Shown here piece after piece: positions 40,945 through 64,000 of a DNA stretch of 64,000 bases. Position numbers and translations under genes: made by a program. This stretch comes from a virus (lineage: Duplodnaviria > Heunggongvirae > Uroviricota > Caudoviricetes): IMG/VR virus record IMGVR_UViG_3300025916_000008, positions 40,845 through 104,844 of that record; one strand, given 5' to 3'. How positions within the stretch are numbered: position 1 is the stretch's first letter; every line of letters starts with the position of its first letter. The notes beneath the pieces were generated by a model, which was not told where the DNA came from, searched no databases, and worked only from the letters and a program-made list of their open reading frames with translations.

Positions 40945-40954
40945 ATATTCTCTC

Positions 40955-42157: not shown

Positions 42158-42196
42158 ATGTTGGTCTTGCAAGGGACGAGCGGCCAGGAGGACCCC

Positions 42197-42971: not shown

Positions 42972-43010
42972 ATGTTGGTCTTGCAAGGGACAAGCGACCA
43001 GGAGGACCTG

Positions 43011-44043: not shown

Positions 44044-44062
44044 TATCAAGAAAACCTGTATC
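44044..44062 (-). promoter_or_regulatory. 19-bp motif copy in reverse orientation (tatcaagaaaacctgtatc)
   Basis: 17 of 19 match to the reverse complement; between terminator 43996-44031 and the 44074 ATG. Confidence 0.6.
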
Positions 44063-44555: not shown

Positions 44556-44557
44556 CC

Positions 44558-45124
44558 ATGGCCAGGGGGAAGCGCCGCTACGGGCGCAAGCTGAGCCGCT
44601 GGGGCCTCCCGGCGGCTACAGTCTTCACCCTGTGGCTGGCCGACAACGACCCGTTCGGGCCGTCCGGCCTCCTGGCATTCCTCGGGCTGGCCCTGCTGCT
44701 GTCCGTCTTCTGGCCGGTCGCCCTGATCATGCTCGTGCAAGCCCCAGGCAGCCTTGTGCCGAACTCCTGGCGCATCTGGTGGCGCGGCGGTGACCCGGGC
44801 AGGCCGCACATCCCCAACTGGCTCAGGCGGGCCGTGTACGCCGCCGACGGGCGGCGCTGCTGCTACTGCGGCTACGCCGGCTCCCTCCAGCTCGACCACG
44901 TGCGCCCCTGGTCGCGCGGCGGGCGCTCCTCGCTGTGGAACCTGATGACGCTGTGCGAGCCGTGCAACCTGGTCAAGTCGAACTACTGGCAGGACCGGGA
45001 CTACCGCTGGTACCGGCCGTTTGCCGGGCACGACAACATCCGCACGGCGGCGGCCATCCTCTCGTTCGAGCGCAGGCACCGCTGGAGCCCTCTGCGTCTC
45101 ATTCGGGCAGCAATGGCACTTTAA
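44558..45124 (+). CDS. HNH endonuclease with N-terminal membrane-anchor region
   Basis: CCYCGYAGSLQLDHVRPWSRGG...NLMTLCEPCNLVKSN is a canonical HNH motif (C-x2-C...DH...N...C-x2-C-N). Confidence 0.75.
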   Translation: MARGKRRYGRKLSRWGLPAATVFTLWLADNDPFGPSGLLAFLGLALLLSVFWPVALIMLVQAPGSLVPNSWRIWWRGGDPGRPHIPNWLRRAVYAADGRRCCYCGYAGSLQLDHVRPWSRGGRSSLWNLMTLCEPCNLVKSNYWQDRDYRWYRPFAGHDNIRTAAAILSFERRHRWSPLRLIRAAMAL

Positions 45125-45191
45125 GGCTGCGGGGCAACGCGCTCCCGTACTATCTTTCCCTGGTAATCCTGACCCAGGAAGGAAGTTTGCC

Positions 45192-46339: not shown

Positions 46340-46819
46340 ATGAGGTACTTCGCGCTGGTAGGGACCGACGACAGCGTGGTCGCAGGCGAGGTCTGCGACC
46401 TGATCATCGTGGACGAGGACTCCCCCGGCGCGTCCGGGCTATCGCTTCCGCTGTTCGTCAAGGTCACCGACCCCGACAAGCTGGGCAAGGCCCAGGCCGC
46501 CGCCGAGGGCGTGCTCCGTGAGCTGGACTGGCGCGTCACCGGGCCATGGGAGATCGCCGACACGCACCTGCGCGCCCCGGTGGAGATGAGGGGGCCAGGT
46601 ACGGCCGGGGCAGCGCCGCGCGAGGCCGACGAGTGGCCCGCCGGGAAGTCCTTCGGCGAGCTGAGCCCGGGGCAGAAGGTCGTCCAGGCGAGGAAGGCCG
46701 GGCGGAGGCTGGAGGCGGAGCTGAACTCCCCTGCGGTGCAGGCCGCGATCAGCGCGCTCCTGGACTCGGACCTGGACGAGCAGGACGCGGCAGCCGTCGA
46801 GCGGCACCTCGGCCTGTAG
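46340..46819 (+). CDS. hypothetical protein
   Basis: ATG at 46340 after terminator + motif + leader. Confidence 0.5.
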   Translation: MRYFALVGTDDSVVAGEVCDLIIVDEDSPGASGLSLPLFVKVTDPDKLGKAQAAAEGVLRELDWRVTGPWEIADTHLRAPVEMRGPGTAGAAPREADEWPAGKSFGELSPGQKVVQARKAGRRLEAELNSPAVQAAISALLDSDLDEQDAAAVERHLGL

Positions 46820-48228: not shown

Positions 48229-49230
48229 CTACAGGGCCAGCAGCGGGGCCAGCTCAGCCAGCTCCCCCGCGCCCGCCGCGCCTCCCGTAGCCTCTCCCGC
48301 CCCGGCACCCGCGCCGCCCGGCAGCATCGAGCGCAGCCCCTGGCCCGCCAGCATGTCCTTGACGGCTCCCCCGTGCCCGCCGCCGCTGCCGCCGTCCCCG
48401 CCGGAGCCGCCGCCGCCCATCGGGGCGTTGCTGATCGCCGAGTCGGAGAGGTCAGCCTCGCGCAGGTAGCCCGACACCACCTTGCGGGCCACCCGCTCGC
48501 ACTCCTCGCGGGGCAGCCCCGGGTTGGCCTGGGCGATGGCCGCCGTCGCCTGGAGGACCCTGGAGCGCACCGGGTCGCGGCTGGAGGTGACCTGGCCGAC
48601 AGGGGCGGCCGACCCGCCCGGCATGCCGGCGGGGATGCTGGGGGTCATCCCGCCGCTGCCGGGGGAGGCCACGCCGATGTCCAGGGAGCCGTCCCCGGTG
48701 CCCAGGTCCGGCGGGGTGTACTGGTTCGTCATCATCCCCTGCGGGCTGGCGTCCGCCGTCCTGCGCAGCGACCCGGTGGCCTCCTGGACCGGGGCGGCGG
48801 CCTCCGGGCGGGGGCGGGTCACCTGCGGGCTGGGGCCGGACAGGGGACCGGGCGGCACCTCGGAGTAGGACCCGCTGAAGTCCGGCCCCTCGCTGTGCTG
48901 GTCGGGCTTCTCCCCACCGCCGCCCTCCCCGCCGTTCAGCAGCGGGATCAGCGACACCAGCGGGTCGGTGCCCTCCGCGAGCGCCTCCCGGTACAGGGCG
49001 TACCGCTGGGTGGCCACCTCGGTCATCGACCCGGCCTCAAGCCCGTGGCGGGCCTCCACCGTGGCGAGGGACTCCCCGGCCACTGCCAGGCGGTGGAAGA
49101 ACTCCTGGTCCGAGCGGGCCGCGTACAGGAACGGCAGGATGCCCTCCAGGTCGGCGTCCGCCCTGGCGAGCGCCGCCTGGCGGGCGATGCCCTCGTGGTC
49201 GTCCGAGGCGATCGTCCACAGGTCGTCCAT
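48229..49230 (-). CDS. Gly/Pro/Ser-rich hypothetical protein (333 aa)
   Basis: ORF; TGATG-coupled to the upstream 902-aa gene. Confidence 0.5.
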   Translation of the reverse strand: MDDLWTIASDDHEGIARQAALARADADLEGILPFLYAARSDQEFFHRLAVAGESLATVEARHGLEAGSMTEVATQRYALYREALAEGTDPLVSLIPLLNGGEGGGGEKPDQHSEGPDFSGSYSEVPPGPLSGPSPQVTRPRPEAAAPVQEATGSLRRTADASPQGMMTNQYTPPDLGTGDGSLDIGVASPGSGGMTPSIPAGMPGGSAAPVGQVTSSRDPVRSRVLQATAAIAQANPGLPREECERVARKVVSGYLREADLSDSAISNAPMGGGGSGGDGGSGGGHGGAVKDMLAGQGLRSMLPGGAGAGAGEATGGAAGAGELAELAPLLAL

Positions 49231-51938
49231 CAGTAACCCCCTGGCTCGTGGTGGTGCGGGACCGAGCGGGCCACCACGTCGGGGTGGTCGCGGTACTGGC
49301 CGTAGTGCATCTCGTTGTGCAGCCCCTGGAGGAAGGCGGAGCCCGGCTGCTTGGTGCTGTCCGGGCTGTGAGTCACGCCGTGGTGCATCATCATGTGCTC
49401 GTACAGCTCAGGGGCGCTGCGGGGCGGGTCGACGTACTCGGGCACGGACCCGGAGGCGTCCCCGGTGCGGGGGTCCTCCCAGTCGTCTTCGTCATCGTCG
49501 CCGTCGCCGGCGTACCACTCTGCGGTCACCCTTGCGAGGTTAGCCGCCACGCGGCCCCTGAAAGCCTCCAGGAGCGCCGTGCGCCCCTGGCCCGGCGGGT
49601 AGGCGTCCGTGTTGCTGTAGCCGCTAGAGTCGGCCTTGTTGGGCGCTACGGGGGCCAGCACGGCGTTCTCCGGGTGGTTGCCGGAGAAGGTGTTGGTGAA
49701 CGGACCGTCCGGCTGCGCGGGCTCCTGGGGCTTGCCCATCACGTCGTCGGGCACCACCGGCCCGCCGGGGAGCGGCGGGGCACCCTGGTACGGCGGCGCT
49801 CCCCCGGGCGCGGCGGGCATCGACAGGCCGCCCATCGGCGGCGGGGTGCCCGGCCCGTTCAGCGGCGTCGACCCCATCGGGTCGGCGGAGGACCCCGGCC
49901 CGTCGGTGATCAGGTCCGTGGAGACGCCCGCCTCGCGGGTCAGGTAGACGTTCCTCGACCCGTGCTTGCGGGTGAACGAGTGGTGCAGGCTGATACGCCG
50001 TCCCAGCGCAGGGTGGTCGCCGGACCTCAGCCAGTGGGCGGTGATCCACTCCCCGTGCATTTCGGGCCGGTCGGTGACGCCCGCGTACAGGCCGGCCTCG
50101 AACCTCGCCGACCCGGTGGAGACCAGCCGCTGGCCCGGCTGCCACTTGCTGGCGAACAGGTAGCCCTTGCGGAACTCCGGGTCGGCCATCAGGGAATCAG
50201 GGGCGAAAACCGCCGAAACCCGGCGAAGCCCGGCAACATGCCGCGAGGCACGCGCCACCTGGAAGGACTGCGCCGCCTGCTGGGCGTTCACCGCCTGGCC
50301 GGAGTCGCCGCCCATCGACAGGGGCACGTCCTGCTGCCCCTGCGGGCTCTGCGCCGCCCCGTAGCCCTCGGCATAGCCCTTCACGTACGGGCTGACCCCC
50401 GAGGAGTTGTCCGCGAACAGCGGGCGCTCCCCCGCCGATCGGTCGGACCGGCCCGCCGCCTGCCCGGCCGCGAAGTCGGAGGCCTCCGGGGAGGCGTTCT
50501 GCGACCACGGGTCCGGGGAGGTCTCCGCCGAGTTGTACGGCGGGTTGATGTCGTCGGTGCTCTGGTGCGGCTGGCTCCAGGTGTCGGCCTGCCGGGTGAT
50601 CGCGGCGGTGACCTGGCCCCCGTCGTCGGCGCGGGGCTGCGTGCGGCCCTGGGCGTACCCCTGGGCGTAGGCCGCCAGGTAGTGAGGGTGCAGGTCGGGC
50701 CGGCCGGTCGCCCTCGCGTACTCGGCCTTGCTCAGGGCAGGGCGGCCGGTCAGCCCGTGCGTCAGGCCGGCCAGGTTGTTCCACGCGCGCAGGTACTTGC
50801 CGTGCTGGATCTTGTTGGACCCGAAGTCGTCCTGGTGGCGGGCACCGCGCCCGTTGGCGGCGTCCGCCTCCCCCAGCGCCTCGGCGTGCCCACGGTCCAT
50901 CGCCAGCGCGATGCACCGGACCAGCGCGCCCTTGGTCACCCAGCCGAACACCGGGTCGTACTCGGTCTGCTCCTCCGGGGGACGGCCGCCGCGCGAGGGG
51001 TTGGTGAATCCCTCGCCGTAGGGGTCGTAGTGGGTGCCCTCGTCGCTGAGCCCTGACTCGGTGCCCGGGTCGAGGCCCCGGGCGAAGGAGGGAGCCTCCC
51101 GCCGGGGGGCGGACGGCTCGTAGCTGCGGGTCGGCCGGGGCTGCCGGGGGCGCTGCGGCCGTGCCTGGCCGGGCTCGTCACCGTGTACCCACTTGTGGAA
51201 GCGGTCGGAGTCGAAGTTGCGGTTGCCGTTGGGGGTGAAGCCCGCTCCGGCGTGCATCGTATCGGCGATGGCCGGGTAGACGTGGTGCTGGAAGTCCTCC
51301 TCCGACACCTCGCCCCGGTGCCGGACGTTGCGGAGCATGTCGGCGACTGCCTGGTAGTGACCGCGCGAGTAGCTGGTCTGCCGCCCACGGCTGCGCCAGG
51401 AGTAACCGGACGGGTCGGTGGCGGCGCGCTCGAACAGGTCCCGGTCCACCCCTCCCATGCCGCTGGTCGCCTGCGGCAGGTCACGGGCGAAGGAGCGGGC
51501 CACCGGGCCGCGCACGTGCTCGGGCATCCCGGAGATCGCCGAGGCGAGGTCCTCGTAGTGACGGCGGCCCCAGGCGACGGCCTCCACCTGGAAGGCCCCT
51601 GTGCGCGGCTGCGGGCCGCCCGGACCCGTCGACCACTGCTGCCCGAAGGTGGAGGACGGGGCGTTGTCGCCGAGCGGGAACGCCACTCCCTCGGGGAGGT
51701 CGTCGTCCTGGGGGACGGGCTGGTTGTTGGGGTCGACGACCTGCTGGATCTGCGGCAGGCCGGAGGCGGCGGTGCGCGCCATGCCCTCCACCTGGTGCTT
51801 GATCTCGCCGCAGTAGGCGTCGGGGTCGCGCTTGTCCGAGTTCTCGCTGGTGCAGTCGCTGAAGTCCTCGTACCCGGCGAAGGGCGCGCCCTTGCGCATC
51901 GCCAGGAAGTGGCCCGGCGGCAGGAAGCTGGTCGTCAC
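49230..51938 (-). CDS. large (902 aa) low-complexity His/Asp/Pro-rich protein, paralogous region with next gene
   Basis: Shares SGLPQIQQVVDPNNQPVP with SGLPQIDQTIDPNNAPAP of gene 51948-53510; possible virion internal protein. Confidence 0.55.
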   Translation of the reverse strand: MTTSFLPPGHFLAMRKGAPFAGYEDFSDCTSENSDKRDPDAYCGEIKHQVEGMARTAASGLPQIQQVVDPNNQPVPQDDDLPEGVAFPLGDNAPSSTFGQQWSTGPGGPQPRTGAFQVEAVAWGRRHYEDLASAISGMPEHVRGPVARSFARDLPQATSGMGGVDRDLFERAATDPSGYSWRSRGRQTSYSRGHYQAVADMLRNVRHRGEVSEEDFQHHVYPAIADTMHAGAGFTPNGNRNFDSDRFHKWVHGDEPGQARPQRPRQPRPTRSYEPSAPRREAPSFARGLDPGTESGLSDEGTHYDPYGEGFTNPSRGGRPPEEQTEYDPVFGWVTKGALVRCIALAMDRGHAEALGEADAANGRGARHQDDFGSNKIQHGKYLRAWNNLAGLTHGLTGRPALSKAEYARATGRPDLHPHYLAAYAQGYAQGRTQPRADDGGQVTAAITRQADTWSQPHQSTDDINPPYNSAETSPDPWSQNASPEASDFAAGQAAGRSDRSAGERPLFADNSSGVSPYVKGYAEGYGAAQSPQGQQDVPLSMGGDSGQAVNAQQAAQSFQVARASRHVAGLRRVSAVFAPDSLMADPEFRKGYLFASKWQPGQRLVSTGSARFEAGLYAGVTDRPEMHGEWITAHWLRSGDHPALGRRISLHHSFTRKHGSRNVYLTREAGVSTDLITDGPGSSADPMGSTPLNGPGTPPPMGGLSMPAAPGGAPPYQGAPPLPGGPVVPDDVMGKPQEPAQPDGPFTNTFSGNHPENAVLAPVAPNKADSSGYSNTDAYPPGQGRTALLEAFRGRVAANLARVTAEWYAGDGDDDEDDWEDPRTGDASGSVPEYVDPPRSAPELYEHMMMHHGVTHSPDSTKQPGSAFLQGLHNEMHYGQYRDHPDVVARSVPHHHEPGGY

Positions 51939-51947
51939 GTTCCCCTC

Positions 51948-53510
51948 CTACTTGCCGACGGGGGCGACGTGGTACTCCCTCGCCATCTCGTTGATGTAGT
52001 TGACCACCTTGTCGTGCGGCTCGTTCGTCCGGCCGATGTCGTGCTTGGCGTTCCTCACGTCGGCAGCGCTGCCGACCGGGAACTTGTCGCCGGGACCGGG
52101 CAGGTGGTGAGGCGCGCTCTCCCGCTCGTGCTCGGTGACGCCGCCCGCCGCCAGTCCCCTGGCCCCTGTCCGGGCGTGGCCCCTCGGGTGCTTGGCGCAC
52201 GCGCAGTCCGGGTTGGTGCAGTCACCGCAGGGAACCCCCTTGCAGGCGGTGCAGGACATCTCGGCGAGGACCGGGCGCACCACGGCCATGAACCCGTGCA
52301 GCACGGCGGTGTCGTCCAGGGTGCGGTCGCTGCTCCCCCAGGCGGCGGTGAAGCGGTTGTGCGCCTCGCCAAGCTCGGCGGCCGAGTGAGACGCGGTGAT
52401 CGCCCGCAGGCCCTCCCGGACGCCTACCGCCTCGCACTGGGCGGCGCGGCGCGCCTGGTCGATGTCCATCGTGTAGCCGACGGCCACCGAGGCGGTGTGG
52501 GAGAAGTCGCCGCACGCCTCGTCCGGCCAGTGGGCCGAGCCGCACTTCTGGTGGAACGGGTGCATCACCTCGGCGCTCGCCATCCCCCAGCGGTACCCGA
52601 ACGGGTCGGGGGCGGAGTAGCCGGCGACGGCCTGCCGGCGGTCGGCCCCGGCGTCCTGCATGGTGCCGGCCACCGGGTTGGGGTGGCTGGAGGCCATCGA
52701 GTCGGTCGCGGCCGGGGTGGTCGGCAGGGTGCCGGGCGGTCCCAGCGGCACCTCCGCGTAGCTGTCGGCCGTGTCGAACATGGTGGTGTGGCTGTCCGGG
52801 CGCTCCGGGCCGGTGCCGAAGCCGGAGCCGCCGTTCTGCTGCTGCATCACCTGCTGGATCAGCGGGGCTCGCTGGGAGGAGGCCTGCGAGTCGTGGTCGA
52901 ACCCCTCCACCTGGTTGAACGGGTCCTGGTCCGCGCCGAAGGTGGGGAACACCTCGGTGGGGTACGGCGTCGGCGCGGGGGCGTTGTTCGGGTCGATCGT
53001 CTGGTCGATCTGCGGCAGGCCGCTGGCTCCCTCGCGGGCGTCCAGGTAGGAGACCACCGAGATGAACTCGTCGGCCGCCTGGCCTGACCGGCTGCCGTAG
53101 GCGGAGGCGAGGGTGCGTGCCCGGCCGTACGCCTGGGCGGCCAGCTCCTCGCGGTCAGCGCGCAGCTCGGGGGGCAGGCCCCGGTACCAGGTGGACGCCT
53201 CGGCGATCATCGCGGTGCGGTAGTCCAGGGAAGGCTCCCGGACCTCGGCCAGCCAGTCGGTGGCGGCGGTGTGGTGCTCGTGGACGGGGACCGGGGTGAG
53301 GCGCTGGCCGGCGATGCGCGCCCCCAGGTCGGTCTCCCGGTCCAGGGCGGCCCGGTGGCGCTGGCTGCTGTCGAAGTCCTCCAGGGCGGCGATGGCCCGC
53401 GCCAGGGGCTGCCCTCCTGCGTCCGATGCCTCGCGGATCGTCCGCATGAGGTCGCTGCGGTCTGTCATGAGCCCTCCCGTGGGTTCCTGCCCCTTCTGCG
53501 GCCAGGTCAC
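51948..53510 (-). CDS. 520-aa protein with C-terminal Cys-rich region, N-terminal paralog of the 902-aa protein
   Basis: ORF; Cys cluster CTACKGVPCGDCTNPDCAC. Confidence 0.55.
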   Translation of the reverse strand: MTWPQKGQEPTGGLMTDRSDLMRTIREASDAGGQPLARAIAALEDFDSSQRHRAALDRETDLGARIAGQRLTPVPVHEHHTAATDWLAEVREPSLDYRTAMIAEASTWYRGLPPELRADREELAAQAYGRARTLASAYGSRSGQAADEFISVVSYLDAREGASGLPQIDQTIDPNNAPAPTPYPTEVFPTFGADQDPFNQVEGFDHDSQASSQRAPLIQQVMQQQNGGSGFGTGPERPDSHTTMFDTADSYAEVPLGPPGTLPTTPAATDSMASSHPNPVAGTMQDAGADRRQAVAGYSAPDPFGYRWGMASAEVMHPFHQKCGSAHWPDEACGDFSHTASVAVGYTMDIDQARRAAQCEAVGVREGLRAITASHSAAELGEAHNRFTAAWGSSDRTLDDTAVLHGFMAVVRPVLAEMSCTACKGVPCGDCTNPDCACAKHPRGHARTGARGLAAGGVTEHERESAPHHLPGPGDKFPVGSAADVRNAKHDIGRTNEPHDKVVNYINEMAREYHVAPVGK

Positions 53511-54007
53511 GGGATGGGGTCAAAGGGCGGTAACGGAGAGGTAACGATGCTGGCAGACGACTCGATAACGTCCATGATCACGGAAAGGTCACAGCCGCGA
53601 AGGGGCGGCATCCGCCCGGCGTCCACGAAGTCGAGCCACATGCCGGCCACCTCGGAGGCCGCCAGGCCGCCCTTCACCCGGTCAGCGGCCCAGCCGGGCA
53701 TACGCCCGTACCACTGCTTCCTGCCGGAGTCGGGCTTGCGCACCGGCTCCAGGCCCAGCTCGACCGCCCTGGCGACCAGGGCGCGGATCTGGGACCGGGT
53801 GAGGATCACCCGGGTGCCCGCGTCGAGGATCTCCCGGGCGACCGCCACCGGGTCGTTGCCGTCGTCGCGGCGGGCCGCCGCGTCCGCGCTGGCGCACCCC
53901 TGGTGCAGCTTGCGCCCGTAGAAGTAGAAGTACTCGTCCCCGAGGACGAACTCACCCTTGCACTCGTCGCAGGTGATCCCCGGTTCCCTTGCCGTCGCCG
54001 TCGCCAC
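53507..54007 (-). CDS. hypothetical protein with N-terminal Zn ribbon (CDEC...HQGC)
   Basis: 166 aa; its start overlaps the 3' end of the next gene by 56 nt. Confidence 0.45.
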   Translation of the reverse strand: MATATAREPGITCDECKGEFVLGDEYFYFYGRKLHQGCASADAAARRDDGNDPVAVAREILDAGTRVILTRSQIRALVARAVELGLEPVRKPDSGRKQWYGRMPGWAADRVKGGLAASEVAGMWLDFVDAGRMPPLRGCDLSVIMDVIESSASIVTSPLPPFDPIP

Positions 54008-54305
54008 TGAAGCCTCCCAAGGCTTCCGTGGCGAACTGGCCCTCCTCGTCCGGGTAGATCCCGTAAGCGGCCAGGATCGCGGCCGAGAGCTTGTCGGCGG
54101 CGGTGGCGGACAGCCGCCGCAGGAAGGCCCGCGCCTCGTCGAAGGCCGGGGACACGCCGTCCCGGGCCACCTTCCCGTCGAGCAGCTCCAGCATCGCGTC
54201 CGCCTGGCGCAGGTCCTCCGCGAGCGGCCAGATGTCTTCCCGGCCAGGCCACTTGCGCGGGTCCGGTCCCTCGTGGACCGGGACCTCCTCCGGGTTCGCG
54301 CTCAC
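53952..54305 (-). CDS. hypothetical protein
   Basis: GTG at 54305 is GTGA-coupled to the UDG stop; 117 aa. Confidence 0.4.
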   Translation of the reverse strand: MSANPEEVPVHEGPDPRKWPGREDIWPLAEDLRQADAMLELLDGKVARDGVSPAFDEARAFLRRLSATAADKLSAAILAAYGIYPDEEGQFATEALGGFSGDGDGKGTGDHLRRVQG

Positions 54306-54874
54306 GCGGCCGGGACCTTATATACCGAGGCGAGGGCTTCGATGGCCGCGTTCTTCCACTCGGGGACCTCGCGAGCTGAAAGCCGCATGATGTAGCTCGG
54401 GTGAGGCAGCGCCAGGAGCCTGCGGCCGTTCAGCTCGTGCCAGTGGAAGCGAGACTCCTCGAACCGGCCGATGGAGTCAGCGCCCAGGCCGCGCCAGGCG
54501 ACCGACCCGGCGGCGACGACCACGACGGGATTGACGGCATCCAGCTCGGCGGCGAGGCGCGGCTGCGACGCGGTGACCTCGAACGGGTAGGGAGTGCGGT
54601 TCCCGGGCGGACGCCACAGGACCACGTTGGTGACGTAGCACAGCTCCCAGGGGACCTCGGCCCTGGCGAAGATGTCCTGGAGGAGCTTCCCGGCGGGGCC
54701 GGTGAACGGCCTCCCGGTGCGTTCCTCCGTAGCGCCCGGGGCCTCGCCGACGACGGCGAGCGCGCCGTGCGGGCCGTGCCCGCGCACCATCTCCCGCCCC
54801 TCGGCCAGCCGGGCGAAGAGGGGATTGCCCGCGTACGCCTCGTACAGCGCGTCCAGTGACTGCTGCTCGCTCAT
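54302..54874 (-). CDS. udg: uracil-DNA glycosylase, family 4
   Basis: GEAPGATEERTGRPFTGPAGKLL (family-4 motif A) and LALPHPSYI (HPS motif B) at correct spacing. Confidence 0.85.
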   Translation of the reverse strand: MSEQQSLDALYEAYAGNPLFARLAEGREMVRGHGPHGALAVVGEAPGATEERTGRPFTGPAGKLLQDIFARAEVPWELCYVTNVVLWRPPGNRTPYPFEVTASQPRLAAELDAVNPVVVVAAGSVAWRGLGADSIGRFEESRFHWHELNGRRLLALPHPSYIMRLSAREVPEWKNAAIEALASVYKVPAA

Positions 54875-54896
54875 GTGTCTCCTCCCGGGAACCAGC

Positions 54897-55001
54897 GGGC
54901 CGGGCGGCTCGTGAGAGCGCCCGGCCCGGGGCGGCGGTCATCGGGACCGCCGCTGCAAGGAACAAGCAGCCGTCCCTCCCCGCGTACGCCCGTGGGGAGG
55001 G
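54897..55001. other. two GC-rich hairpins in 179-nt intergenic spacer upstream of udg
   Basis: 10-bp stem gggccgggcg / cgcccggccc (54897-54927) and 8-bp stem ccctcccc / ggggaggg (54974-55001). Confidence 0.45.
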
Positions 55002-55024
55002 GGGACTACCAGGAACTCCAGGAT

Positions 55025-55043
55025 AATACAGCTTTTCTTGACA
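55025..55043 (+). promoter_or_regulatory. 19-bp motif copy (aatacagcttttcttgaca) between two leftward genes
   Basis: 18 of 19 match; plus-strand orientation although both flanking genes are on the minus strand. Confidence 0.65.
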
Positions 55044-55053
55044 GCACAAGGGG

Positions 55054-55800
55054 TCAGGCGAGGCTCGTCAGTTCCTTGTAGCCCTCCTGCGGGAAGTCGC
55101 CCTCGCGCCGCGCGGTCCGGGCCGTCGGGTGACCCTTGGTGGCCTTGCGCCACTCCGGGTACCGCTCGCCCCACTGGCTGGTAACGGTGCCCCCGGTCAT
55201 CACGATGACGTAGCCGTCGGGCTGCACCTCGAATGGGGAGCTGAGCAGGTCCATGTGGTCGTACGGGGCTCCGGCGGCGTCCGGGTCGAACCAGGCCGGG
55301 AACACGAAGTCGGACACCGTGCCGGTCACCTCGGTGCCCTCCTCGGTCCGCACGGTCATCTGGTAGGAATCGCTCTCCACCGGGTCGCCCACCTCGCGGG
55401 CAACCAGGGAGCCGTCGGCCCGCTGCGCCCAGCCGTTGCAGGCGGCGTCGCCGAGCGTCTCCAGCACCTCGTGCGACAGCACCGAGCACACCGACAGCTT
55501 GCCGGCGAGGATGCCGCCGCCGTTCTCCAGCACCGGCTTGGCGAACACCCGTCCGTAGACGCTGGCGTCCGGTCCCTCGGTGTGCCAGCCGAGGTCCCCC
55601 GCCTGGTCGGCGTTGTCGAGGATGCCGATCATCGCGTCGTAGTGCAGCACCGAGGGCTGCTTCAGGAAAGTCACCATGGACGGCTGCACCCCCCACGCGG
55701 GAGCGAAGTGGTCGCGCGCCTGGCGGTCGACCAGGAGCGTCATGGCGTAAGCGTCCTGGTCGGTGACCGAGGTGCTCAGGTTCTGGACGGCGATGATCAA
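55054..55800 (-). CDS. hypothetical protein (248 aa)
   Basis: ORF; ATGA-coupled. Confidence 0.5.
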   Translation of the reverse strand: MIIAVQNLSTSVTDQDAYAMTLLVDRQARDHFAPAWGVQPSMVTFLKQPSVLHYDAMIGILDNADQAGDLGWHTEGPDASVYGRVFAKPVLENGGGILAGKLSVCSVLSHEVLETLGDAACNGWAQRADGSLVAREVGDPVESDSYQMTVRTEEGTEVTGTVSDFVFPAWFDPDAAGAPYDHMDLLSSPFEVQPDGYVIVMTGGTVTSQWGERYPEWRKATKGHPTARTARREGDFPQEGYKELTSLA

Positions 55801-56111
55801 GGCTCCTCCGTGACAACAGGGCGGTCGGGGGCGTTGCTCGCCCAGCGCCAGCGGTGCTCGTCCACCAGCCGGTGGTCCTCGGCGATCCTCGCCGGGTCGT
55901 TCGTCTTCACGTTCAGCAGCTCGATGATGACGTTGCCGCGCTCCAGGAACGTGCAGTCCTTCACCGGCTCGCTGGACCAGCCGTCGGCCAGCTCGATGAA
56001 GTCGCCGGGGCGCGGCACGGCGTGCACCGAGCGGGTGGTCTCCATGCAGTAGATCCCCGCAGGGGCGGGGGCGCTGACGTACAGGTGCCGCCGGACGGTG
56101 ACCGGGATCAC
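55797..56111 (-). CDS. hypothetical protein
   Basis: Val65 of ORF 55797-56303 lies exactly at the GTGA overlap with the upstream stop (GTG at 56111); alternatively ATG at 56045. Confidence 0.4.
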   Translation of the reverse strand: MIPVTVRRHLYVSAPAPAGIYCMETTRSVHAVPRPGDFIELADGWSSEPVKDCTFLERGNVIIELLNVKTNDPARIAEDHRLVDEHRWRWASNAPDRPVVTEEP

Positions 56112-56401
56112 CCGGCCGCCCTCCGCGCCTCGTCCTTCCAGTTGATGGAGTGGCCGCCGGCCCACTGCATCATGACGCCGACGAACCGCTTCGCGGCGTC
56201 GCTCCACCGGGACTCGTCGCCCTCGGCGATCAGGCGGCCGTCCTCCTCCCGGAGGATCAGCAGCATGGTGCTGCCGTCGGCGGAGGGGATCTCGATCCGC
56301 CACGGCGGCGGGGCCAGGTTCGCGGGGGCGATGTTGCCCTGCATGACCGGGCCGGACGGCGTGAGGCGCTTGCGCATCTCCTCGGGGTACTGGGAGGTCA
56401 C
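56108..56401 (-). CDS. hypothetical protein
   Basis: Val55 of ORF 56108-56563 falls on the GTGA overlap (GTG at 56401). Confidence 0.4.
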   Translation of the reverse strand: MTSQYPEEMRKRLTPSGPVMQGNIAPANLAPPPWRIEIPSADGSTMLLILREEDGRLIAEGDESRWSDAAKRFVGVMMQWAGGHSINWKDEARRAAG

Positions 56402-56655
56402 GGCGTCACTCCTGGGATCTTGGTGAAGTCGGCGAACGGGTCGGGGTCGCGGGCCATCTTCTCCCAGCCGGGGTTGTCCTTCTCCCACCGGGCTCGGCGG
56501 CGGATCGCCTCCGGGAGGGTCCTCGGGCAGTGCGGGCCGGGGTGCAGCTCGGCCAGGGAGCACCAGTGGTCGATGAGGCCGTCGGGGGTCTGCTGTTCCC
56601 GGCAGGTGCGCTGCGGGAACTCGGCGAACTTCACCTCGGGCAAGTCGTCGCTCAT
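56398..56655 (-). CDS. hypothetical Cys-containing protein
   Basis: Met111 of ORF 56398-56985 falls on the ATGA overlap with the giant gene stop; GGAGGG SD. Confidence 0.4.
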   Translation of the reverse strand: MSDDLPEVKFAEFPQRTCREQQTPDGLIDHWCSLAELHPGPHCPRTLPEAIRRRARWEKDNPGWEKMARDPDPFADFTKIPGVTP

Positions 56656-59600
56656 GCAGCCCTCCCTGTCAGCGGGAAACTTACCACGTCGTCCCCTCGC
56701 TTCACGTGCAGGTGAGTGAACCTCAGCGGCACCGCCGGGTGCGGCTCCGGCAGCTCGTCGCCCTCCTGCATGTAGGTCAGCGTGATGTGCGGCTTCCAGT
56801 CCTTGTGCTCGCTGGCGGAGAGGTCCTCCAGCAGGCGGCGCAGGCGGCCTACCCCGCCGATGTAGGCCGGGACGTAGGCGGGGACCTTGCCGTCGCTGCT
56901 CGCGCTGGGCGGGAAGATGCCGATCCCCCTCAGCACCCCCTCCAGCGGCGGGCACTGGGCGGCGGCGGCCCTGGCGCGCCTGCACGCCTCCTCGAACGCC
57001 TTGTCGCTGAGACCGGACCCGAGGTAGACGATGGTGACGTGGTGGTCGTCCACCCCGCCGGGCACCGGCCGCACAGTGCCCGGCGGGAGATCGAGGTAGA
57101 TCATCCCGCTGCGGGGCTTCAGGTCATAGCCTGCGGCGGCAGTCCGGCCAGGGCGCGCCTCCCGGCAGCCGGGGCACCCCAGCTCGTGCGCGAGGCCCAG
57201 GTCGTGCCGCTCGCGCACGACGCGCAGCGGGTGAGCTGAGCGCCTGTCCCCCTCGAACTCGCCCTGGGGGTCGTCCTCGTGCGGCCCGGTCGGCTCTACC
57301 TCGTACACGTGCGGGTAGGTCGTCCAGCCGGGAGAGTCCTCCTCGTTCAGGTACCTGGAGCCTTCCTCTGCCCACCTGGCCGCGTCATGCGGGGACCTGG
57401 TGAAGAAGACGTGCGGCAGCGGCCCGTCGTCCGCGTTCACCGGGTCATGGCCGGGCTCAATGAGGTCGTCCTCGGCGAGCCGGAACGGCGAGCCGTGGTA
57501 CCAGCGCTCCACGGCCCCGCCGCGCGCCCACGGCTTCAGGGTGGCCTCCTCGTTCCTGCGGAACTCGTCTTCGCGGTCGAGGCGCTCCTGCTCGAAACGC
57601 CTCTCCATGTCGGCCCGCTCGTGAGCCTTGCGCCGCTCGGGGTGCCGGGCGTACTCGGAAGCCTGCGTGGCGCGCTCGGCCGGGGACAGGCCGGTCAGCG
57701 GGAAGCTGTGCACCTCGTCGCCCCGGCGCACGTGCACGTGGGTGAACGACACCCCTACCTGCGGGTGCGGCCCCGGGTCGGGGTCGTTGCCGGTGAGCTG
57801 CGCCCTGGTGACGTGCGGGGTGTACTGCTCGTAGTGCGCCCGGTCGAACTCGCCGAACTCCTGCTGGAGCCGGTGCACGCCGGGGATGCGGGCCGGGACC
57901 ACCGCGACGCGGCGCTTGTCCGACGGAGCGCCCGGCGGGAACGTCAGGTGGCCGCCGAGCGTGCCCCGCAGCGGCGGGTACCGGGTGGCCGCCTCCCTGG
58001 CCCGGTCGACCACCTTGGCGAAGTCTTCATCGCCGATCGCCCTTGGCAGGTAGGCCAGCGCGATGTGGTGGCCGCCCTCCTGCCCCTGGTACGGCTCGAC
58101 CGTCCCGTGGGGAACGTCGAGGTACACCATCGCGTTGCCCGGGGTCCTCCTCGGGCGCTGCTGGCCGCCGGAGGGGGCTGCCGCCTCGCGGCGGATGCCG
58201 ACGTCGGAGTAGTCGGTGGCCCCGCTGCCCCGGTAGGCGACCGGGACGTGGCGGCCGACCGGGTGCCAGGTCCATCCCGGCCCGTTGCGCTCCGGGTGCA
58301 GCGGGGCGATGGCCCCGCGCTCGTCGGCGTCCGGCTCGCCTACCCAGGCTCCCTCCACGTGCACGGTCTTCCCAGGATGCAGCCGGACCTCCTTCTCCGA
58401 CGGCATCGACTCGTGCTTCCCGCTCCACATCGGGTGGGACCGGGGGATCGCCTGCGCCTGCGGGTGCTCGACGCGGGCCTGCCAGATCACCGGGTAGCGG
58501 CCCTCGTGCTGCTGGCCGGTGATCACCTGGTGCGGGACCACCGACCAGTGGATGCCCACCGAGTCAGGGTCGTGCGGCGAGTCGTCCTCGAAGTCGCGCC
58601 GCTCGCCGCGCCAGATCCGGGTGCCGGGCACCGGGTTCCTGGCCAGGTCGAGCTGCGGGTCCCGGTGGCGGCTGTACGGGGCGGCGACGGCCTCCTCCTG
58701 CTCGGGCGGCATCGGCGGCAGGTGCGACTGGTCCGGGGGCATGTGCGGGCTCCGGCCGCTCCCCGGAAAGTCGCGGGACAGCCCGGTGGCGTGGCGGTGG
58801 TGCGCCACCTGCGTCACCGCGTCGGGGTAGCGGTCGCGCATCTCCTGCGCCGCGTCCCCGTGGCCCGCGCCGTCCAGCATCAGCGCCTGGTGCCAGACGA
58901 AGCCCCCGCCGTGATCACGGTCGTCGGGGTCCATCTGCGCCGGGTCGGGGTCCCGGTGGCCGCCGGCCTGGCTGGCACGCGCCGCCGCCTGGAGGGCGTG
59001 CCGACGGATGGTGACGTGGTGCGCCGCCTCGTGCGCCAGGGTCAGCGCGTTGTCCTGCTCCGGGTGCAGCATGACGCCCAGGCTCCCGTCCTCGCCGGTC
59101 GCCGGCTGGGACACCCGCTGCTCCGGGTGCGGGTGCGGAGCCGCCCACGCCCGGCCGCCTTCCTCGTCGGGGATGATGAAGGACGCCCGGTGCAGCATCT
59201 GCCGCAGCACTGGGGTGCGCTCCTCCCCCAGCGGCCGGGTCAGGTCCGGGTAGGCGCTGCGGAGGTGATCCTGGAGGATGGACACCACGGCCCGGTTCGG
59301 CTCGCGCTCGGCCTGCTGCTGCCACTGCGGTGCGGCGGCGGCGGCGGTGCGGCGGCCGGACGGCGGCGTCTCGTCCGGTTCCTCGTAGTCCTCGTCCAGC
59401 GGGTGGCGGGCGAGGCGGTGCGGCTGCGCGCCGGGGATGAACAGGTGCCGGTGGTCAATCCAGTCGCCGACGCGCCGGACCTTTTGCAGCAGCGGCTCCC
59501 CGTCGTAGCCGACGCCGGACATCTCGCCTCGCACCAGGTGGCCGGTCTCCCCGGGCCGGTCGTTCCCCTGGCGGCGGTTCTTCTCGGCCTTCAGGACGCG

Positions 59601-62129
59601 CCCCCGCATCTCCTCCTGCGGGTCGTTGCCGTACTCTTCGGTAGGGATGTCGCAGTCCTCGTCGCAGCTCTCGTCGTGCTCGTGGTCCCGGTCCAGCCCG
59701 TGGCCGATCACCGGCTCCCCGTGCCGGTCCAGGTCGTAGGCGCTGACTCCCCACTCGTGGTAGCCCCCCGCCGGGCTGAACGACCGCTCGTTCTCCGGCC
59801 AGTGACCGAACCGCAGGTAGACACCGCTGGTTTCGGAGCCGCTGGTGTCGGGCTGCCAGGAGGCCGTCTTCGGCTCTGCGGCTGCTGTCGTACCGGGCAG
59901 CTCGCCGCCGTGCTGGCGGTGGTAGTCCAGCACCCGGTCGCGCACCTCGTCGGGCTCGTCGTGCTCGCTGGCGTCCTCCCAGGTGCGCTGGTGAGGCTCC
60001 GGCTCAGCCCGCCACGGGGCGATGTGCTCGACGTGGGTGACCTCGATGTCGTCGGGGTCGGCGATGGCCGAGATGCTCTTCGGCGCGCCCCTCGGCCAGT
60101 CCTGGTGCTTCTGGATGGCCTTCGTGGATGCCTCGCCGCCCCGGGTGGCGTCGGTGTCGTACGGTCCCTCCACGCCGTTGCCGTAGGTGATCCCGTGGTG
60201 CCCCTGCTCGCGCAGGTGCGCCTTGAAGCCCGCGAGGATCTCCGGCATGTGCGGGTGCCACTGGAGGAGCGACTGCGCCTTCTGCCCCAGTCGCCAGCGC
60301 TGTCCCGGGTCACCGGGAACCTGGGAGAAGTCGCGGTGCGTGCCCTCCTGGTCGGAGTAGTTCCACGCCATGGTCCCGTTGAGCTTGTCGTCGTGCCAGT
60401 GCGGGTAGTGCCCTGAGGCCCAGTCCGCCATCGCGATGTTGAGGTGGTCCTCGGTCGGGAAGTGAGCAGGGCTGCCGCCGCGCAGCCGGGCGTGCACGAT
60501 CGCGGCGGAGGTACTGGAGATGCCGCCCCCGGCGAACTTGTGGCCCACCTCGTGCAGAGGGCTGAAGTGGACGCCCAGGTGCTGGTTCGGCTGCGTCCAC
60601 CCGGAGTTCATCACCCGCTGGTCCGGCGGGAGGGCCGCCCGCTGCGCCTCGTCGGAGTACTTGCGACGGCCGCTGAAGTCCGGCTCGCCCCGGGTCCCGT
60701 GGAACCAGATGTACGCCCAGTCGTCCCGCCCGCCGAACTGCGGGTCTCCGTGGTAGGGGTTGCGCAGGTACCCCTGGGCCGCCGTCCTGGTCAGCGCCAG
60801 CTCCCTGATGTGGTCCAGGACGTGGCGCGGGGCGTAGGCCAGCCACTTCTCGGTCAGGTTGGCAGGGTCGTCCCAGCCGGTGCCCTCCGGGGAGAACGCC
60901 TGCGAGCGCCCGGCGTGCAGCCGGTCCCACAGCGCCCTGGCCTCGCGGGTGCGGGCCGGCTCGGGCATCCGCAGGATCGCGCGGGCCTCGGCCGCGACTG
61001 CCCTCGCCTGGGCGAGGAAGGCCGGGTCGAAGTCGGCGATCGTGTGCCCCGGCAGGTGCGGCGGCTGCACCGACCAGCGGCCGTGCGTCAGGTCGTAGGC
61101 GGCGTACGGGCGGATCTGGGTGACGTCCCAGGCCCGCTGGTTGCAGAACCCGGTCAGCGCCCACGTGCCGCCGAACGACGGCCGCCAGTGGTCGTCGTTG
61201 AAGTGCCGGTGGAACGCCGCGTTCAGCACTGAGGCCGCCGTCCCGGCGTCCGTCCCCTCGAAGGCGCTGTGCCGCTGCGCCTCGCGCAGGTCGATCGCGA
61301 CGATGACGTCCAGGTCGCGGGCGGTGCCGTTCGGCCGGGGGCCGGCCCACTCCGACACCGCGCCGCCGAGCAGGTACACCCGCGTCCAGTCCTGCCAGTC
61401 GCTTCCGGCCAGGCCGGAGTCGGTCCGGATGCACTGGTCGAGGCGCGTCATCACGCAGTGACGCACGTCCGGCCGGAGACGGCCGTGCTCGTCGAACAGG
61501 TCCTGGTCCAGCCCGGTGGTCGGGCCGAAGATGCCCGAGCTGGGCTGCCACCGCACGGCCTCCCTCGGCGGGTGCACCCGCTCCAGGTGGGCGGCCGACG
61601 GGACGACGGCGGAGATCGAGCCGTAGTCCTCCCCGTCGTTCCGGTAGAAGTAGCCGCGCCGGGCCTGCCCCCGGGTGATCTGGGCGCGCATCCGGCCGTT
61701 GGCGTGCGCGTCGTCCATCGGGATGGCGGGGTGGTTGGTCATCGGGCCGGTGATCCGCACCGGGAAGATGCCCGGCCGCGCGTCCATCGGCACCTGGTGT
61801 CCGGTCGAGTACGTCGCCCGGCCCGACGGGTAGCGCGGTGCCTCCAGCTCCCGCTCGGCCCCGGTGACGGTGTAAGGCTTCAGGAGGGTCTTGCCGTACT
61901 CGCGGGTGCCGTCCCAGTCGCCTTCCAGGGGGGTCCCGATGCGGGCGTTCAGCGCCTGCCGGGCGGACTCCTCGGTGCCGACGTGAAGGCCGTAAGCCTG
62001 CCTACTCTGCTGGTCCCAGGTTCGCTCGTCCGGTGTCCCGTGGTAGAAGATCCAGTCGCTCTGCCCGGCCGTCACCGCCCTGGCGGCAGGGCGGGACGGC
62101 GCTAGCGATTTGGGCGGTGATCCTCGCAC
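56652..62129 (-). CDS. giant (1825 aa) polyvalent protein: ART-fold-like modules, HExxH zincin motif, two 2H phosphoesterase domains
   Basis: Three [FWY]HG[ST] modules at residues ~28, ~476 and ~1544. HEAAH at residues 1033-1037 (nt 59019-59033). Two tandem domains each with two H-x-T/S-x motifs at residues 1334-1480 and 1676-1825. Possible GG..S-x13-DLDV NTase motif at residues 253-275. Confidence 0.65.
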   Translation of the reverse strand: MRGSPPKSLAPSRPAARAVTAGQSDWIFYHGTPDERTWDQQSRQAYGLHVGTEESARQALNARIGTPLEGDWDGTREYGKTLLKPYTVTGAERELEAPRYPSGRATYSTGHQVPMDARPGIFPVRITGPMTNHPAIPMDDAHANGRMRAQITRGQARRGYFYRNDGEDYGSISAVVPSAAHLERVHPPREAVRWQPSSGIFGPTTGLDQDLFDEHGRLRPDVRHCVMTRLDQCIRTDSGLAGSDWQDWTRVYLLGGAVSEWAGPRPNGTARDLDVIVAIDLREAQRHSAFEGTDAGTAASVLNAAFHRHFNDDHWRPSFGGTWALTGFCNQRAWDVTQIRPYAAYDLTHGRWSVQPPHLPGHTIADFDPAFLAQARAVAAEARAILRMPEPARTREARALWDRLHAGRSQAFSPEGTGWDDPANLTEKWLAYAPRHVLDHIRELALTRTAAQGYLRNPYHGDPQFGGRDDWAYIWFHGTRGEPDFSGRRKYSDEAQRAALPPDQRVMNSGWTQPNQHLGVHFSPLHEVGHKFAGGGISSTSAAIVHARLRGGSPAHFPTEDHLNIAMADWASGHYPHWHDDKLNGTMAWNYSDQEGTHRDFSQVPGDPGQRWRLGQKAQSLLQWHPHMPEILAGFKAHLREQGHHGITYGNGVEGPYDTDATRGGEASTKAIQKHQDWPRGAPKSISAIADPDDIEVTHVEHIAPWRAEPEPHQRTWEDASEHDEPDEVRDRVLDYHRQHGGELPGTTAAAEPKTASWQPDTSGSETSGVYLRFGHWPENERSFSPAGGYHEWGVSAYDLDRHGEPVIGHGLDRDHEHDESCDEDCDIPTEEYGNDPQEEMRGRVLKAEKNRRQGNDRPGETGHLVRGEMSGVGYDGEPLLQKVRRVGDWIDHRHLFIPGAQPHRLARHPLDEDYEEPDETPPSGRRTAAAAAPQWQQQAEREPNRAVVSILQDHLRSAYPDLTRPLGEERTPVLRQMLHRASFIIPDEEGGRAWAAPHPHPEQRVSQPATGEDGSLGVMLHPEQDNALTLAHEAAHHVTIRRHALQAAARASQAGGHRDPDPAQMDPDDRDHGGGFVWHQALMLDGAGHGDAAQEMRDRYPDAVTQVAHHRHATGLSRDFPGSGRSPHMPPDQSHLPPMPPEQEEAVAAPYSRHRDPQLDLARNPVPGTRIWRGERRDFEDDSPHDPDSVGIHWSVVPHQVITGQQHEGRYPVIWQARVEHPQAQAIPRSHPMWSGKHESMPSEKEVRLHPGKTVHVEGAWVGEPDADERGAIAPLHPERNGPGWTWHPVGRHVPVAYRGSGATDYSDVGIRREAAAPSGGQQRPRRTPGNAMVYLDVPHGTVEPYQGQEGGHHIALAYLPRAIGDEDFAKVVDRAREAATRYPPLRGTLGGHLTFPPGAPSDKRRVAVVPARIPGVHRLQQEFGEFDRAHYEQYTPHVTRAQLTGNDPDPGPHPQVGVSFTHVHVRRGDEVHSFPLTGLSPAERATQASEYARHPERRKAHERADMERRFEQERLDREDEFRRNEEATLKPWARGGAVERWYHGSPFRLAEDDLIEPGHDPVNADDGPLPHVFFTRSPHDAARWAEEGSRYLNEEDSPGWTTYPHVYEVEPTGPHEDDPQGEFEGDRRSAHPLRVVRERHDLGLAHELGCPGCREARPGRTAAAGYDLKPRSGMIYLDLPPGTVRPVPGGVDDHHVTIVYLGSGLSDKAFEEACRRARAAAAQCPPLEGVLRGIGIFPPSASSDGKVPAYVPAYIGGVGRLRRLLEDLSASEHKDWKPHITLTYMQEGDELPEPHPAVPLRFTHLHVKRGDDVVSFPLTGRAA

Positions 62130-63994: not shown

Positions 63995-64000
63995 CCGCTG

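Follow-up and report, generated by a model that had tools for sequence, protein, structure and literature searches.

An inverted motif copy in the spacer upstream of udg lies within a predicted sense promoter, followed by a conserved structured leader, in an uncultured clade of actinophages

Introduction

What does a near-perfect copy of a repeated motif do in a spacer between two genes that are both transcribed in the direction opposite to it? The question is raised by the 179-nt region (54875-55053) that precedes udg in a stretch of 64,000 nucleotides of phage DNA, hereafter the window. The first-pass annotation of this DNA had offered two answers: a promoter, which would drive antisense transcription into gene 55054-55800, or an operator, which would act as a control point separating udg and the genes downstream of it from the giant-protein genes. 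The analysis presented here leads to another reading, which we hold with somewhat more confidence than doubt, namely that the spacer carries a predicted sense promoter for udg with the operator-like core of the motif lying inverted between its hexamers, and that a structured leader follows downstream.

Results

The window belongs to an uncultured clade of high-GC actinophages

The window has a G+C content of ~70% and comes from an uncultured clade of high-GC actinophages of roughly 150-165 kb, in which functions are assigned to almost no gene. Its gene map was drawn from the GC content of third codon positions (GC3) and is given in Table 1 together with the features discussed below. The portal protein is at best 35-37% identical to the portals of large Gordonia, Mycobacterium (cluster C) and Rhodococcus phages, and related contigs of 146-166 kb, analysed here as pieces of up to 21 kb, are present in IMG/VR and in soil metagenomes. 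Pfam and PHROGs yielded no match for most of the large proteins of the window, and the neighbouring 506-aa, 902-aa and 248-aa proteins had no match among PDB sequences; for the last of these, the product of the gene upstream of the spacer, no family match was found in Pfam or PHROG either. A scan of 185,579 genomes returned only chance matches in low-GC genomes and one contig of a Streptosporangiaceae MAG, which bears no protein similarity to the window, and so it gave no evidence of a prophage and no host assignment. In the searchable literature, the motif sequence met only unrelated primer matches.

A megablast search of positions 53000-57000 against 50,697 phage records gave zero matches at the nucleotide level, and so relatives could be reached via proteins and the motif only. 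Six relatives (L027-L031 and L033) were fetched via a homologue of the 506-aa protein, which is encoded ~1.5 kb from the cassette in the spacer; since they were retrieved by protein homology, the motif played no part in finding them. A metagenome scan with the pattern GAAAAGCTGTATTANCCT yielded ten more distinct cassettes and one identical to that of the window. This pattern fixed half of the core and TA.CCT, leaving the TTG, the box and the hairpins free, so that the -10 element is conserved in the ten pattern-retrieved cassettes by construction and seven sequences, the window and the six protein-retrieved relatives, are independent for it. The proteins of the cassette-bearing phages are only 40-77% identical among each other.

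Table 1. Coordinates of the features discussed in the text (window positions; strand as + or -).
Feature	Position	Strand	Remarks
Leftward genes	79-4320 and 9733-15592	-	portal among them; from GC3
Portal protein gene	9951-12227	-	PHROG 2833, 1e-143
Rightward block	15936-48140	+	mostly small genes; from GC3
Inverted motif copy	23202-23220	-	within plus-strand TTCCGA-17-TATCCT-N7-ATG, a full promoter by sequence
Inverted motif copy	31222-31240	-	no -10 on either strand; head-to-head with canonical 31252 copy, 12 nt away
WhiB-domain protein	34921-35610		candidate regulator; not tied to the core
Protein with phage zinc-finger DNA-binding domain (Phage_zn_bind_8)	37540-37974		candidate regulator; not tied to the core
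Inverted motif copy	44044-44062	-	plus-strand TATCAT-N9-ATG (44074); no recognisable -35
zf-HC2 protein	46340-46819		candidate regulator; not tied to the core
Leftward block	48229-64000	-	contains udg and an 1825-aa protein; from GC3
udg (190 aa)	54302-54874	-	heads the unit that the cassette serves; Pfam PF03167 (UDG), 7.5e-28; GC3 0.91
udg Shine-Dalgarno sequence	54879-54886	-	GGGAGGAG
Hairpin 1	54897-54927	-	long GC-rich stem, arms GGGCCGGGCGG / GCGCCCGGCCC; followed by GUUUCC, then ribosome-binding site
Hairpin 2	54931-54953	-	loop C(C/A)GAUG; arms GCGGCGGTC / GACCGCCGC
Box GTTCCTTGCA (54954-54963) with flank	54954-54971	-	box invariant in 15/16 cassettes
Hairpin 3, extended	54965-55010	-	core stem 54974-55001, arms CCCTCCCC / GGGGAGGG; terminator- or attenuator-like; followed by U-rich tail UGUUCCUU
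Predicted transcription start	55011-55014	-	6-8 nt past the -10, by the spacing rule of the leaderless genes
Predicted -10, TATCCT	55025-55020	-	TA[T/C/A]CCT in 7/7 (window and 6 protein-retrieved relatives)
Motif copy AATACAGCTTTTCTTGACA	55025-55043	+	1 mismatch to consensus AATACAGCTTTTCTTGATA
15-nt core of this copy	55026-55040	+	orientation opposite to udg transcription; occupies the 18-nt spacer of the predicted promoter
Predicted -35, TTGTGC	55049-55044	-	TTG precedes the -10 by 17 or 18 nt in 16/16 cassettes
Upstream gene (248 aa)	55054-55800	-	GC3 0.95

The cassette between udg and the upstream gene

The first-pass annotation had described the spacer as the longest of the leftward block, with a near-perfect motif copy facing two minus-strand genes and with two hairpins, and this description holds: the spacer is the longest, which requires accepting the long ORFs 48229-49230 and 56652-62129, the GC3 values of both flanking genes place them on the minus strand, the copy on the plus strand differs from the consensus at a single position, and both hairpins (hairpin 1 and the core stem of hairpin 3) are present. 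Overlooked at that stage were a third hairpin (hairpin 2), the 10-nt box and the minus-strand -35 and -10 hexamers around the motif. The motif is found 13 times in the window at up to 3 mismatches, versus 0.00 expected from 100 shuffles, and the udg copy keeps its position and orientation in all six protein-retrieved relatives. On either strand, the spacer folds far better than shuffled versions of it (z ~ -4.3).

The TGA stop of the upstream gene (55054-55056) is followed 4 nt further on by the predicted -35 hexamer. A homologue of this gene is present upstream of the cassette in L027, L031 and L033, and in L028-L030 an unrelated gene of 85-93 aa, the TAG stop of which belongs to the core, is found there instead; the attachment of the cassette to udg is kept whichever gene precedes it. 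In the more distant relatives L032 and L034-L036, udg is directly joined to the preceding gene and the spacer is absent, indicating that the cassette is a clade-specific insertion or loss.

Gene-proximal motif copies have the layout of sigma-A-type promoters

Read from their sequence, the gene-proximal copies of the motif are sigma-A-type promoters. Twelve plus-strand copies in the window precede plus-strand genes. With the motif as the anchor of the alignment, plus-strand copies show, in this order, TTGnnn or TTCCnn, a single base, AATACAGCTTTTCTTGA and TAnnnT, a -10 hexamer of actinobacterial type whose first two bases are the final two of the 19-mer. The spacer of 18 nt is the motif itself, and the TG of an extended -10 (TGn) occurs in all canonical copies. 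Consensus forms of the TAnnnT type are those of the start-site maps of Streptomyces and Mycobacterium. The register of the -10 is confirmed by leaderless genes: TAATAT-N6-ATG at 40955 opens an ORF of 114 aa with a GC3 of 0.96, the TAnnnT-N6-ATG layout being identical in three relatives, and TATCCT-N7-ATG opens another at 23230. In the strongest copies, another conserved box, GCAAGGRAC-RAGC, lies precisely where the +1 is predicted, and a ribosome-binding site comes after it.

Within the window, TAnnnT follows the core in 11/11 copies with a same-strand gene versus 0/4 of the others (Fisher p = 7e-4), and in the window and relatives together in 26/26 versus 4/21, these four being canonical sites in relatives with a gene that was overlooked by the crude gene caller. 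In the window, at least 11 rightward promoters have their spacer taken up by the core.

The udg copy is embedded in a predicted minus-strand promoter

The antisense promoter into the upstream gene that had been suggested for the udg copy found no support, and most likely the copy does not fire rightward: read on the plus strand, it shows CAGCAC where the gene-proximal copies have TAnnnT, and the position of their TTGnnn is taken by CCAGGA. The -10 position fails likewise in all 15 relatives (TAGACA, TAGTCA, CATACA, CAGACA, CAGTGC or CAGCGC), and no gene, ribosome-binding site or conserved element lies downstream of the copy on this strand.

The minus strand of the same DNA reads TGA-CCCC-TTGTGC-TGTCAAGAAAAGCTGTAT-TATCCT, that is, the stop codon of the upstream gene followed by the hexamers of a predicted promoter, P_udg. 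Its TTG is kept across the 16 cassettes whether it lies in coding or in non-coding sequence, and it was not imposed by any search pattern; the distance from TTG to the -10 is 18 nt in the window and 17 nt in the six protein-retrieved relatives. Thus, TTGnnn-17/18-TAnCCT surrounds the inverted core in 7/7 motif-independent sequences. Both hexamers recur elsewhere in the window: TTGTGC is found in the canonical promoter at 46278, and TATCCT is the -10 both in the leaderless promoter at 23217-23222 and in two canonical copies, those at 27281 and 46278. At the predicted start, a T-A is conserved in the relatives. As for the cassette as a whole, the TTG, the box and the hairpins are found in 16/16, with the place of hairpin 3 filled in most. 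As a host sigma-A-type promoter on the minus strand, P_udg would serve udg and the genes downstream of it (54874 to about 48229).

The -35 of P_udg matches TTGACA at 3/6 positions and, unlike all canonical copies, P_udg has no TGn extended -10. The invariance of CCT within its -10 exceeds what a -10 requires. A generic promoter and terminator scan of the spacer came back with zero promoters, and the one hairpin that it listed was trivial, on the plus strand and within the upstream gene; the missing promoter is a weak negative only, since the -35 threshold of the scan is too strict for the promoters of this phage. Three other arrangements were considered and rejected. An alternative -10, TATTAT (55027-55022), is a fit in the window, but the relatives have TATTAC or TATTAA there; if TTGCAG or TTGTTC of the box is taken as the -35 of a sense promoter, a TAnnnT 16-19 nt away is missing in every relative; and for a simple inversion of the canonical cassette, the order of core and box is wrong.

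The core is a predicted binding site that is kept in either orientation

A comparison of the udg copy with the other orientation-reversed copies had been proposed alongside the antisense promoter. At three sites, the udg spacer included, the core lies in or over the spacer of a promoter that points the opposite way, and the 31222 copy has no -10. At the 23202 copy, the TATCCT of the promoter around it is followed after 7 nt by a leaderless ORF of 86 aa (23230-23490, GC3 0.87). The -10 next to the 44044 copy reads TATCAT, TATAAT, TATTCT or TAAAGT in relatives. As the 31222 copy has no -10 and the 44044 copy no -35, the fit is not universal.

CAAG...GCTGTAT is kept in the inverted copies, although hardly any of it coincides with a hexamer there. 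With the predicted -10 as reference, canonical copies have the core at about -28 to -14, and the corresponding range is -27 to -13 for P_udg and -24 to -10 for 23230. The core is weakly dyad-like (AT..AG-N5-CT..AT), and its variation falls mostly in the central CTTTTC. Being kept where the hexamers do not need it, the core is an element in its own right, which suggests a binding site. In the simplest reading, it is a predicted binding site, in either orientation, for one putative regulator, which is probably encoded by the phage. A position between or over the hexamers contacted by RNA polymerase is the classic one for a repressor and, since the core sits there, we infer that the regulator is probably a repressor. 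By binding the core, the putative regulator would put initiation of the udg operon under the same control as the early promoters. A screen for candidate regulators that covered about 40 of roughly 100 genes pointed to three proteins (Table 1).

The proposal that the spacer is a control point thus stands in part only. The core is conserved beyond what a promoter needs and the spacer is a boundary between transcription units, but there is no free-standing roadblock, as the copy sits inside a conserved predicted sense promoter for udg and before a conserved structured leader.

A structured leader precedes udg

From the predicted start (~55013) to the udg ATG, the leader would measure ~140 nt. Its two start-codon-proximal hairpins are strongly supported by covariation. 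Hairpin 1 shows compensatory changes in 8/14 pairs, with 97.3% of cells paired and 15 G-U versus 3 A-C combinations, and hairpin 2 in 5/6 pairs, with 94.6% of cells paired. Taken jointly, 96.5% of cells are paired and compensatory double changes occur in 13/20 pairs; none of 500 column shuffles did as well, and sliding the partner by one column lowered pairing to ~50%. G-U combinations outnumber A-C combinations 25 to 5, and so the fold is selected on the minus-strand (sense) RNA rather than on an antisense RNA.

The place of hairpin 3 is occupied in most of the 16 cassettes by a hairpin of unrelated sequence, several of which have minus-strand GNRA loops, and all of these hairpins precede (U)UGUUCCUU. 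The extended hairpin 3 of the window runs into UGUUCCUU (5 U in 8) and hairpin 1 into CGUUUCC, and hairpins between genes elsewhere in the window have U tails as short as those of hairpins 1 and 3. A strict terminator scan of the minus strand of the spacer reported none, hairpins 1-3 included. The U-rich tail after hairpin 3 suggests that attenuation may take place here; should this terminator-like hairpin downstream of P_udg be an efficient terminator, expression of udg from P_udg would need antitermination.

The sole variant of the box that lies between hairpins 2 and 3 is that of L101, GTCCCTTGCA. Once reverse-complemented, the box exactly matches GCAAGGRAC, the +1 box that the strongest canonical promoters carry, and the L101 variant switches to the other canonical form, GGGAC. 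In the window, TGCAAGGRAC occurs only 4 times, 3 times at a canonical +1 and once in the udg leader. Many of the folds computed from single sequences pair the UUCCUU of the box with GAGGAG/GGAGGA of the udg ribosome-binding site and so close a three-way junction; this predicted pairing with the Shine-Dalgarno sequence suggests translational sequestration. The structured leader of ~140 nt would thus probably add attenuation or translational control to P_udg.

A search of Rfam 15 (E <= 1) with 54600-55300 on both strands gave no match. An upstream ORF starting from the AUG in the loop of hairpin 2 was rejected, as this AUG is absent in L064, L101 and L104.

The leader is complementary to predicted early mRNAs

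The leader segment CUGCUUGUUCCUUGCA pairs over 16-18 bp with the predicted 5' ends of the mRNAs from 36602, 42168, 42982 and 46868. The predicted duplexes reach -31 to -39 kcal/mol, none of 500 shuffled seeds was as good, and all mismatches are G-U compatible. When the flank of the box was tested for co-evolution with the early leaders, same-phage duplexes were not consistently better than cross-phage ones, and a phage's own early leader scored best only for the window and L031. The change in the L101 box matches its own early leader, whereas the box of the window does not follow its own in this way; the box and its partners show no covariation because both are invariant.

That the leader, or a short RNA ending at one of its hairpins, serves as an antisense regulator in which the invariant, single-stranded CUUGUUCCUUGCA pairs with the GCAAGGRAC-RAGC 5' ends of the most strongly promoted early mRNAs, as the duplex predictions would allow, is in our judgment improbable. 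If true, early messages would be titrated or silenced when P_udg is transcribed, or would themselves make the ribosome-binding site of udg accessible, and the shared operator core would link the leader and the early messages at the DNA level.

Discussion

The reading that we favour, a sense promoter for udg around an inverted core, has to be weighed against several others. The spacer might hold a pure operator or roadblock and no udg promoter at all, with a protein bound to the core modulating read-through from the giant-protein genes and with the hairpins terminating or processing the transcripts of the upstream operon. Polymerases reading on past the stop of 55054-55800 meet no terminator ahead of the core and so have to pass over the core, which is conserved as a unit and is followed by the terminator-like hairpins, and the weak -35 and the silence of the generic scan fit this as well. 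Yet TTG at 17-18 nt and TAnCCT are kept in every relative, even where the TTG lies in a different coding sequence, and a second inverted copy sits in a promoter whose leaderless ATG follows its -10 by 7 nt (23230). Moreover, stoperators need one orientation, as described for cluster A mycobacteriophages (PMC9283540), whereas the udg copy is inverted relative to the majority. We therefore regard the roadblock as unlikely. Rightward firing of the copy, yielding an RNA antisense to the 3' end of 55054-55800, has in its favour a perfect core, a weak promoter readable as TTGACA (55038-55043)-16-GAGGCT in the window only, and the thought that weak hexamers might do if the core recruits polymerase through an activator. 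However, TTGACA-16-GAGGCT is absent in the relatives, neither a TAnnnT nor a -35 TTG is found on the plus strand of the window and 15 relatives whereas every gene-preceding copy has a TAnnnT, the RNA fold belongs to the minus strand, and nothing downstream is conserved on the plus strand, all of which makes rightward firing hardly credible.

P_udg may also produce a short regulatory RNA that ends at hairpin 3 or hairpin 1 and whose CUUGUUCCUUGCA pairs with early mRNA 5' ends or with the udg Shine-Dalgarno sequence. The box's near-invariance, its exact complementarity to the canonical +1 box, the L101 switch to GGGAC, and the strength of the duplexes (unequalled by shuffled seeds) would suit such an RNA, as would the location of the box between hairpins and ahead of terminator-like stems. 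Against it, same-phage duplexes gave no co-evolution signal, the strict terminator definition was matched by none of the hairpins, and the box could just as well be a DNA site, the U-tract of hairpin 3 or a segment of anti-Shine-Dalgarno type; we consider a short RNA quite unlikely. Finally, the cassette might be an inert relic of recombined promoter and stem-loop cassettes, the core and box having no present function. The plus-strand order box-hairpin-core does look like two successive canonical units that have lost the gene between them, the tail of the first meeting the head of the second, gene content among relatives switches exactly at the cassette junction, and more distant relatives have no cassette, udg abutting the upstream gene. 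But the core, box, TTG and -10 are invariant and the stems re-pair by compensatory change in phages whose proteins are 40-77% identical; invariant elements and compensated stems with free variation between them indicate purifying selection, and a relic is accordingly very unlikely.

With a sense promoter, an inverted core and a structured leader as the preferred reading, the clade gains a regulatory grammar that can be read: host-type promoters are recognisable by TTGnnn-18-TGnTAnnnT, and start codons can be corrected where mRNAs are leaderless. The conserved spacer element marks a putative regulon of at least 12-14 promoters, the udg unit included. The 15-nt core can serve as bait for finding the regulator, and the leader adds a covariation-supported RNA that is absent from Rfam.

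Several known systems resemble parts of this arrangement. In 5' leaders that sequester ribosome-binding sites and in the leader-derived antisense RNA C4 of phage P1, a pyrimidine box pairs with a Shine-Dalgarno sequence or with other phage mRNAs. The udg leader likewise has a conserved pyrimidine box within a structured leader, with predicted pairing to a Shine-Dalgarno sequence and to early mRNAs, but unlike those systems it has no Rfam match, and its pairing is predicted, with no covariation between the box and its partners. In the pR'-QBE-tR' region of phage lambda, a protein-binding element lies between the -35 and -10 and a terminator follows shortly downstream, before the genes. An element in a promoter spacer with a terminator-like hairpin ahead of the genes is found here by analogy; unlike in lambda, the core also occurs at many promoters with no downstream terminator, and no pause-inducing element was identified. 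The PeSL units of phage T4, near-identical combinations of a terminator hairpin with a strong host-type promoter that recur in the gaps separating small early genes, offer another analogy, since repeated hairpin-promoter units with mosaic gene content at their borders are also seen here. In PeSL the promoter is the conserved part, whereas here the spacer is conserved most, even when inverted, which argues for a separate binding function.

The cluster A mycobacteriophages (L5, TipsytheTRex) carry more than 20 copies of an asymmetric 13-mer in promoters and short intergenic spaces; the orientation of these sites tracks the direction of transcription, and the stoperators among them lie away from promoters and are inactive when inverted (PMC9283540). 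Both are actinophage systems with a repeated asymmetric site. The udg copy, however, is conserved though inverted and is embedded between a -35 and a -10, so that the definition of a stoperator does not apply to it, and the core is longer than the 13-mer (15-19 nt) and weakly dyad-like.

The C1 operators of phage P1 are asymmetric sites of ~17 bp, dispersed in many copies over a large genome and overlapping the promoters of different operons, which lets a single protein coregulate scattered units. The window, too, has one specific site repeated far above chance that overlaps promoter elements of scattered units. The two differ in that the sequences are unrelated, no C1-like protein was identified here, and the present site lies in the spacer between -35 and -10 with near-fixed geometry; P1 is, moreover, a temperate phage, and in the present case neither an integrase nor a prophage copy nor an immunity region came to light. 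If the core is a repressor site that works in both orientations, the P1 C1 network would have its counterpart among actinophages here, in an apparently lytic phage.

The udg cassette and its relatives

The spacer upstream of udg (54875-55053, between two minus-strand genes) holds an inverted copy of the repeated core motif, three hairpins and a box. In the more distant relatives L032, L034, L035 and L036, udg comes directly after the preceding gene, with spacer, motif and hairpins all absent, and therefore the whole cassette was gained or lost inside the clade. The hairpin 2 loop (54940-54945) reads C(C/A)GA(U/C)(G/A) and is near-invariant across the window and the homologous positions in 15 relatives, with a covarying stem; neither a partner nor a function was found for it in this set. 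A reading of the loop as a start codon was rejected, as the start codon is not conserved across relatives. Outside the phage contigs, one exact core, ATACAGCTTTTCTTGATA, was found on the minus strand (offset ~1436) of L155, a high-GC actinobacterial Streptosporangiaceae MAG contig (JAICYD010000103.1) that has no protein similarity to the window. This lone core may be due to chance, or may be a remote host or phage clue.

Paired and inverted core copies, and features at predicted start sites

Two core copies, 31222-31240 (minus) and 31252-31270 (plus), lie head-to-head upstream of gene 31307, separated by 12 nt, and the canonical copy at 20232 is followed by AGCTGTATT, so that site 20232-20259 is partly palindromic; both arrangements may represent cooperative or double operators. 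Another inverted copy (44044-44062, minus strand, GATACAGGTTTTCTTGATA), kept in at least five relatives, directly adjoins a terminator hairpin on one side and the ribosome-binding site and ATG of gene 44074 on the other. Its plus strand carries TATCAT-N9-ATG but no -35, and because of this the copy fits the promoter rule only imperfectly.

At the strongest canonical promoters a conserved box, GCAAGGRAC-RAGC, coincides with the predicted +1; in a single case (41312-41321, inside a 42-nt intergenic gap) the box occurs without a promoter. It may signal the 5' end, enhance translation or serve as a second operator. Two genes are leaderless (promoter regions 40926-40957 and 23202-23232), and simple ORF rules set their starts too far downstream.

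Coordinates of genes and box copies in the window
Feature	Position	Strand	Remark
1825-aa protein	56652-62129	-	C-terminal domain matches
Leaderless ORF, 114 aa	40955-41299		start context TAATAT-N6-ATG
Leaderless ORF, 86 aa	23230-23490		start context TATCCT-N7-ATG
GCAAGGRAC-RAGC copies	36602-36611, 42168-42177, 42982-42991	+	
GCAAGGRAC-RAGC variants	46306, 46896		
229-aa protein	34921-35610	+	WhiB domain at C-terminus
144-aa protein	37540-37974	+	phage zinc-finger DNA-binding domain
159-aa protein	46340-46819	+	zf-HC2 zinc finger (anti-sigma-type)

Gene content

Two long stretches, 39026-40268 (1243 nt) and 44556-45191 (636 nt), are gene-free in the GC3-based calls; ORFs do exist there, for example 39843-40868 (plus strand), and the gaps probably reflect a limit of the GC3-based gene caller. 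The whole 64,000-nt window contains no tRNA genes. The C-terminal part of the 1825-aa protein carries a rifampin-ADP-ribosyltransferase-like domain (Arr-ms) at residues 1543-1644 and 2'-5' RNA ligase / LigT phosphoesterase domains at residues 1694-1800; residues 1 to ~1350 are without any match; the other giant proteins (583-4320, 5669-9241, 49230-51938 and 62102-end) gave zero Pfam matches. The rightward block encodes three candidate transcription-related proteins, which carry the WhiB and zinc-finger domains listed in the table.
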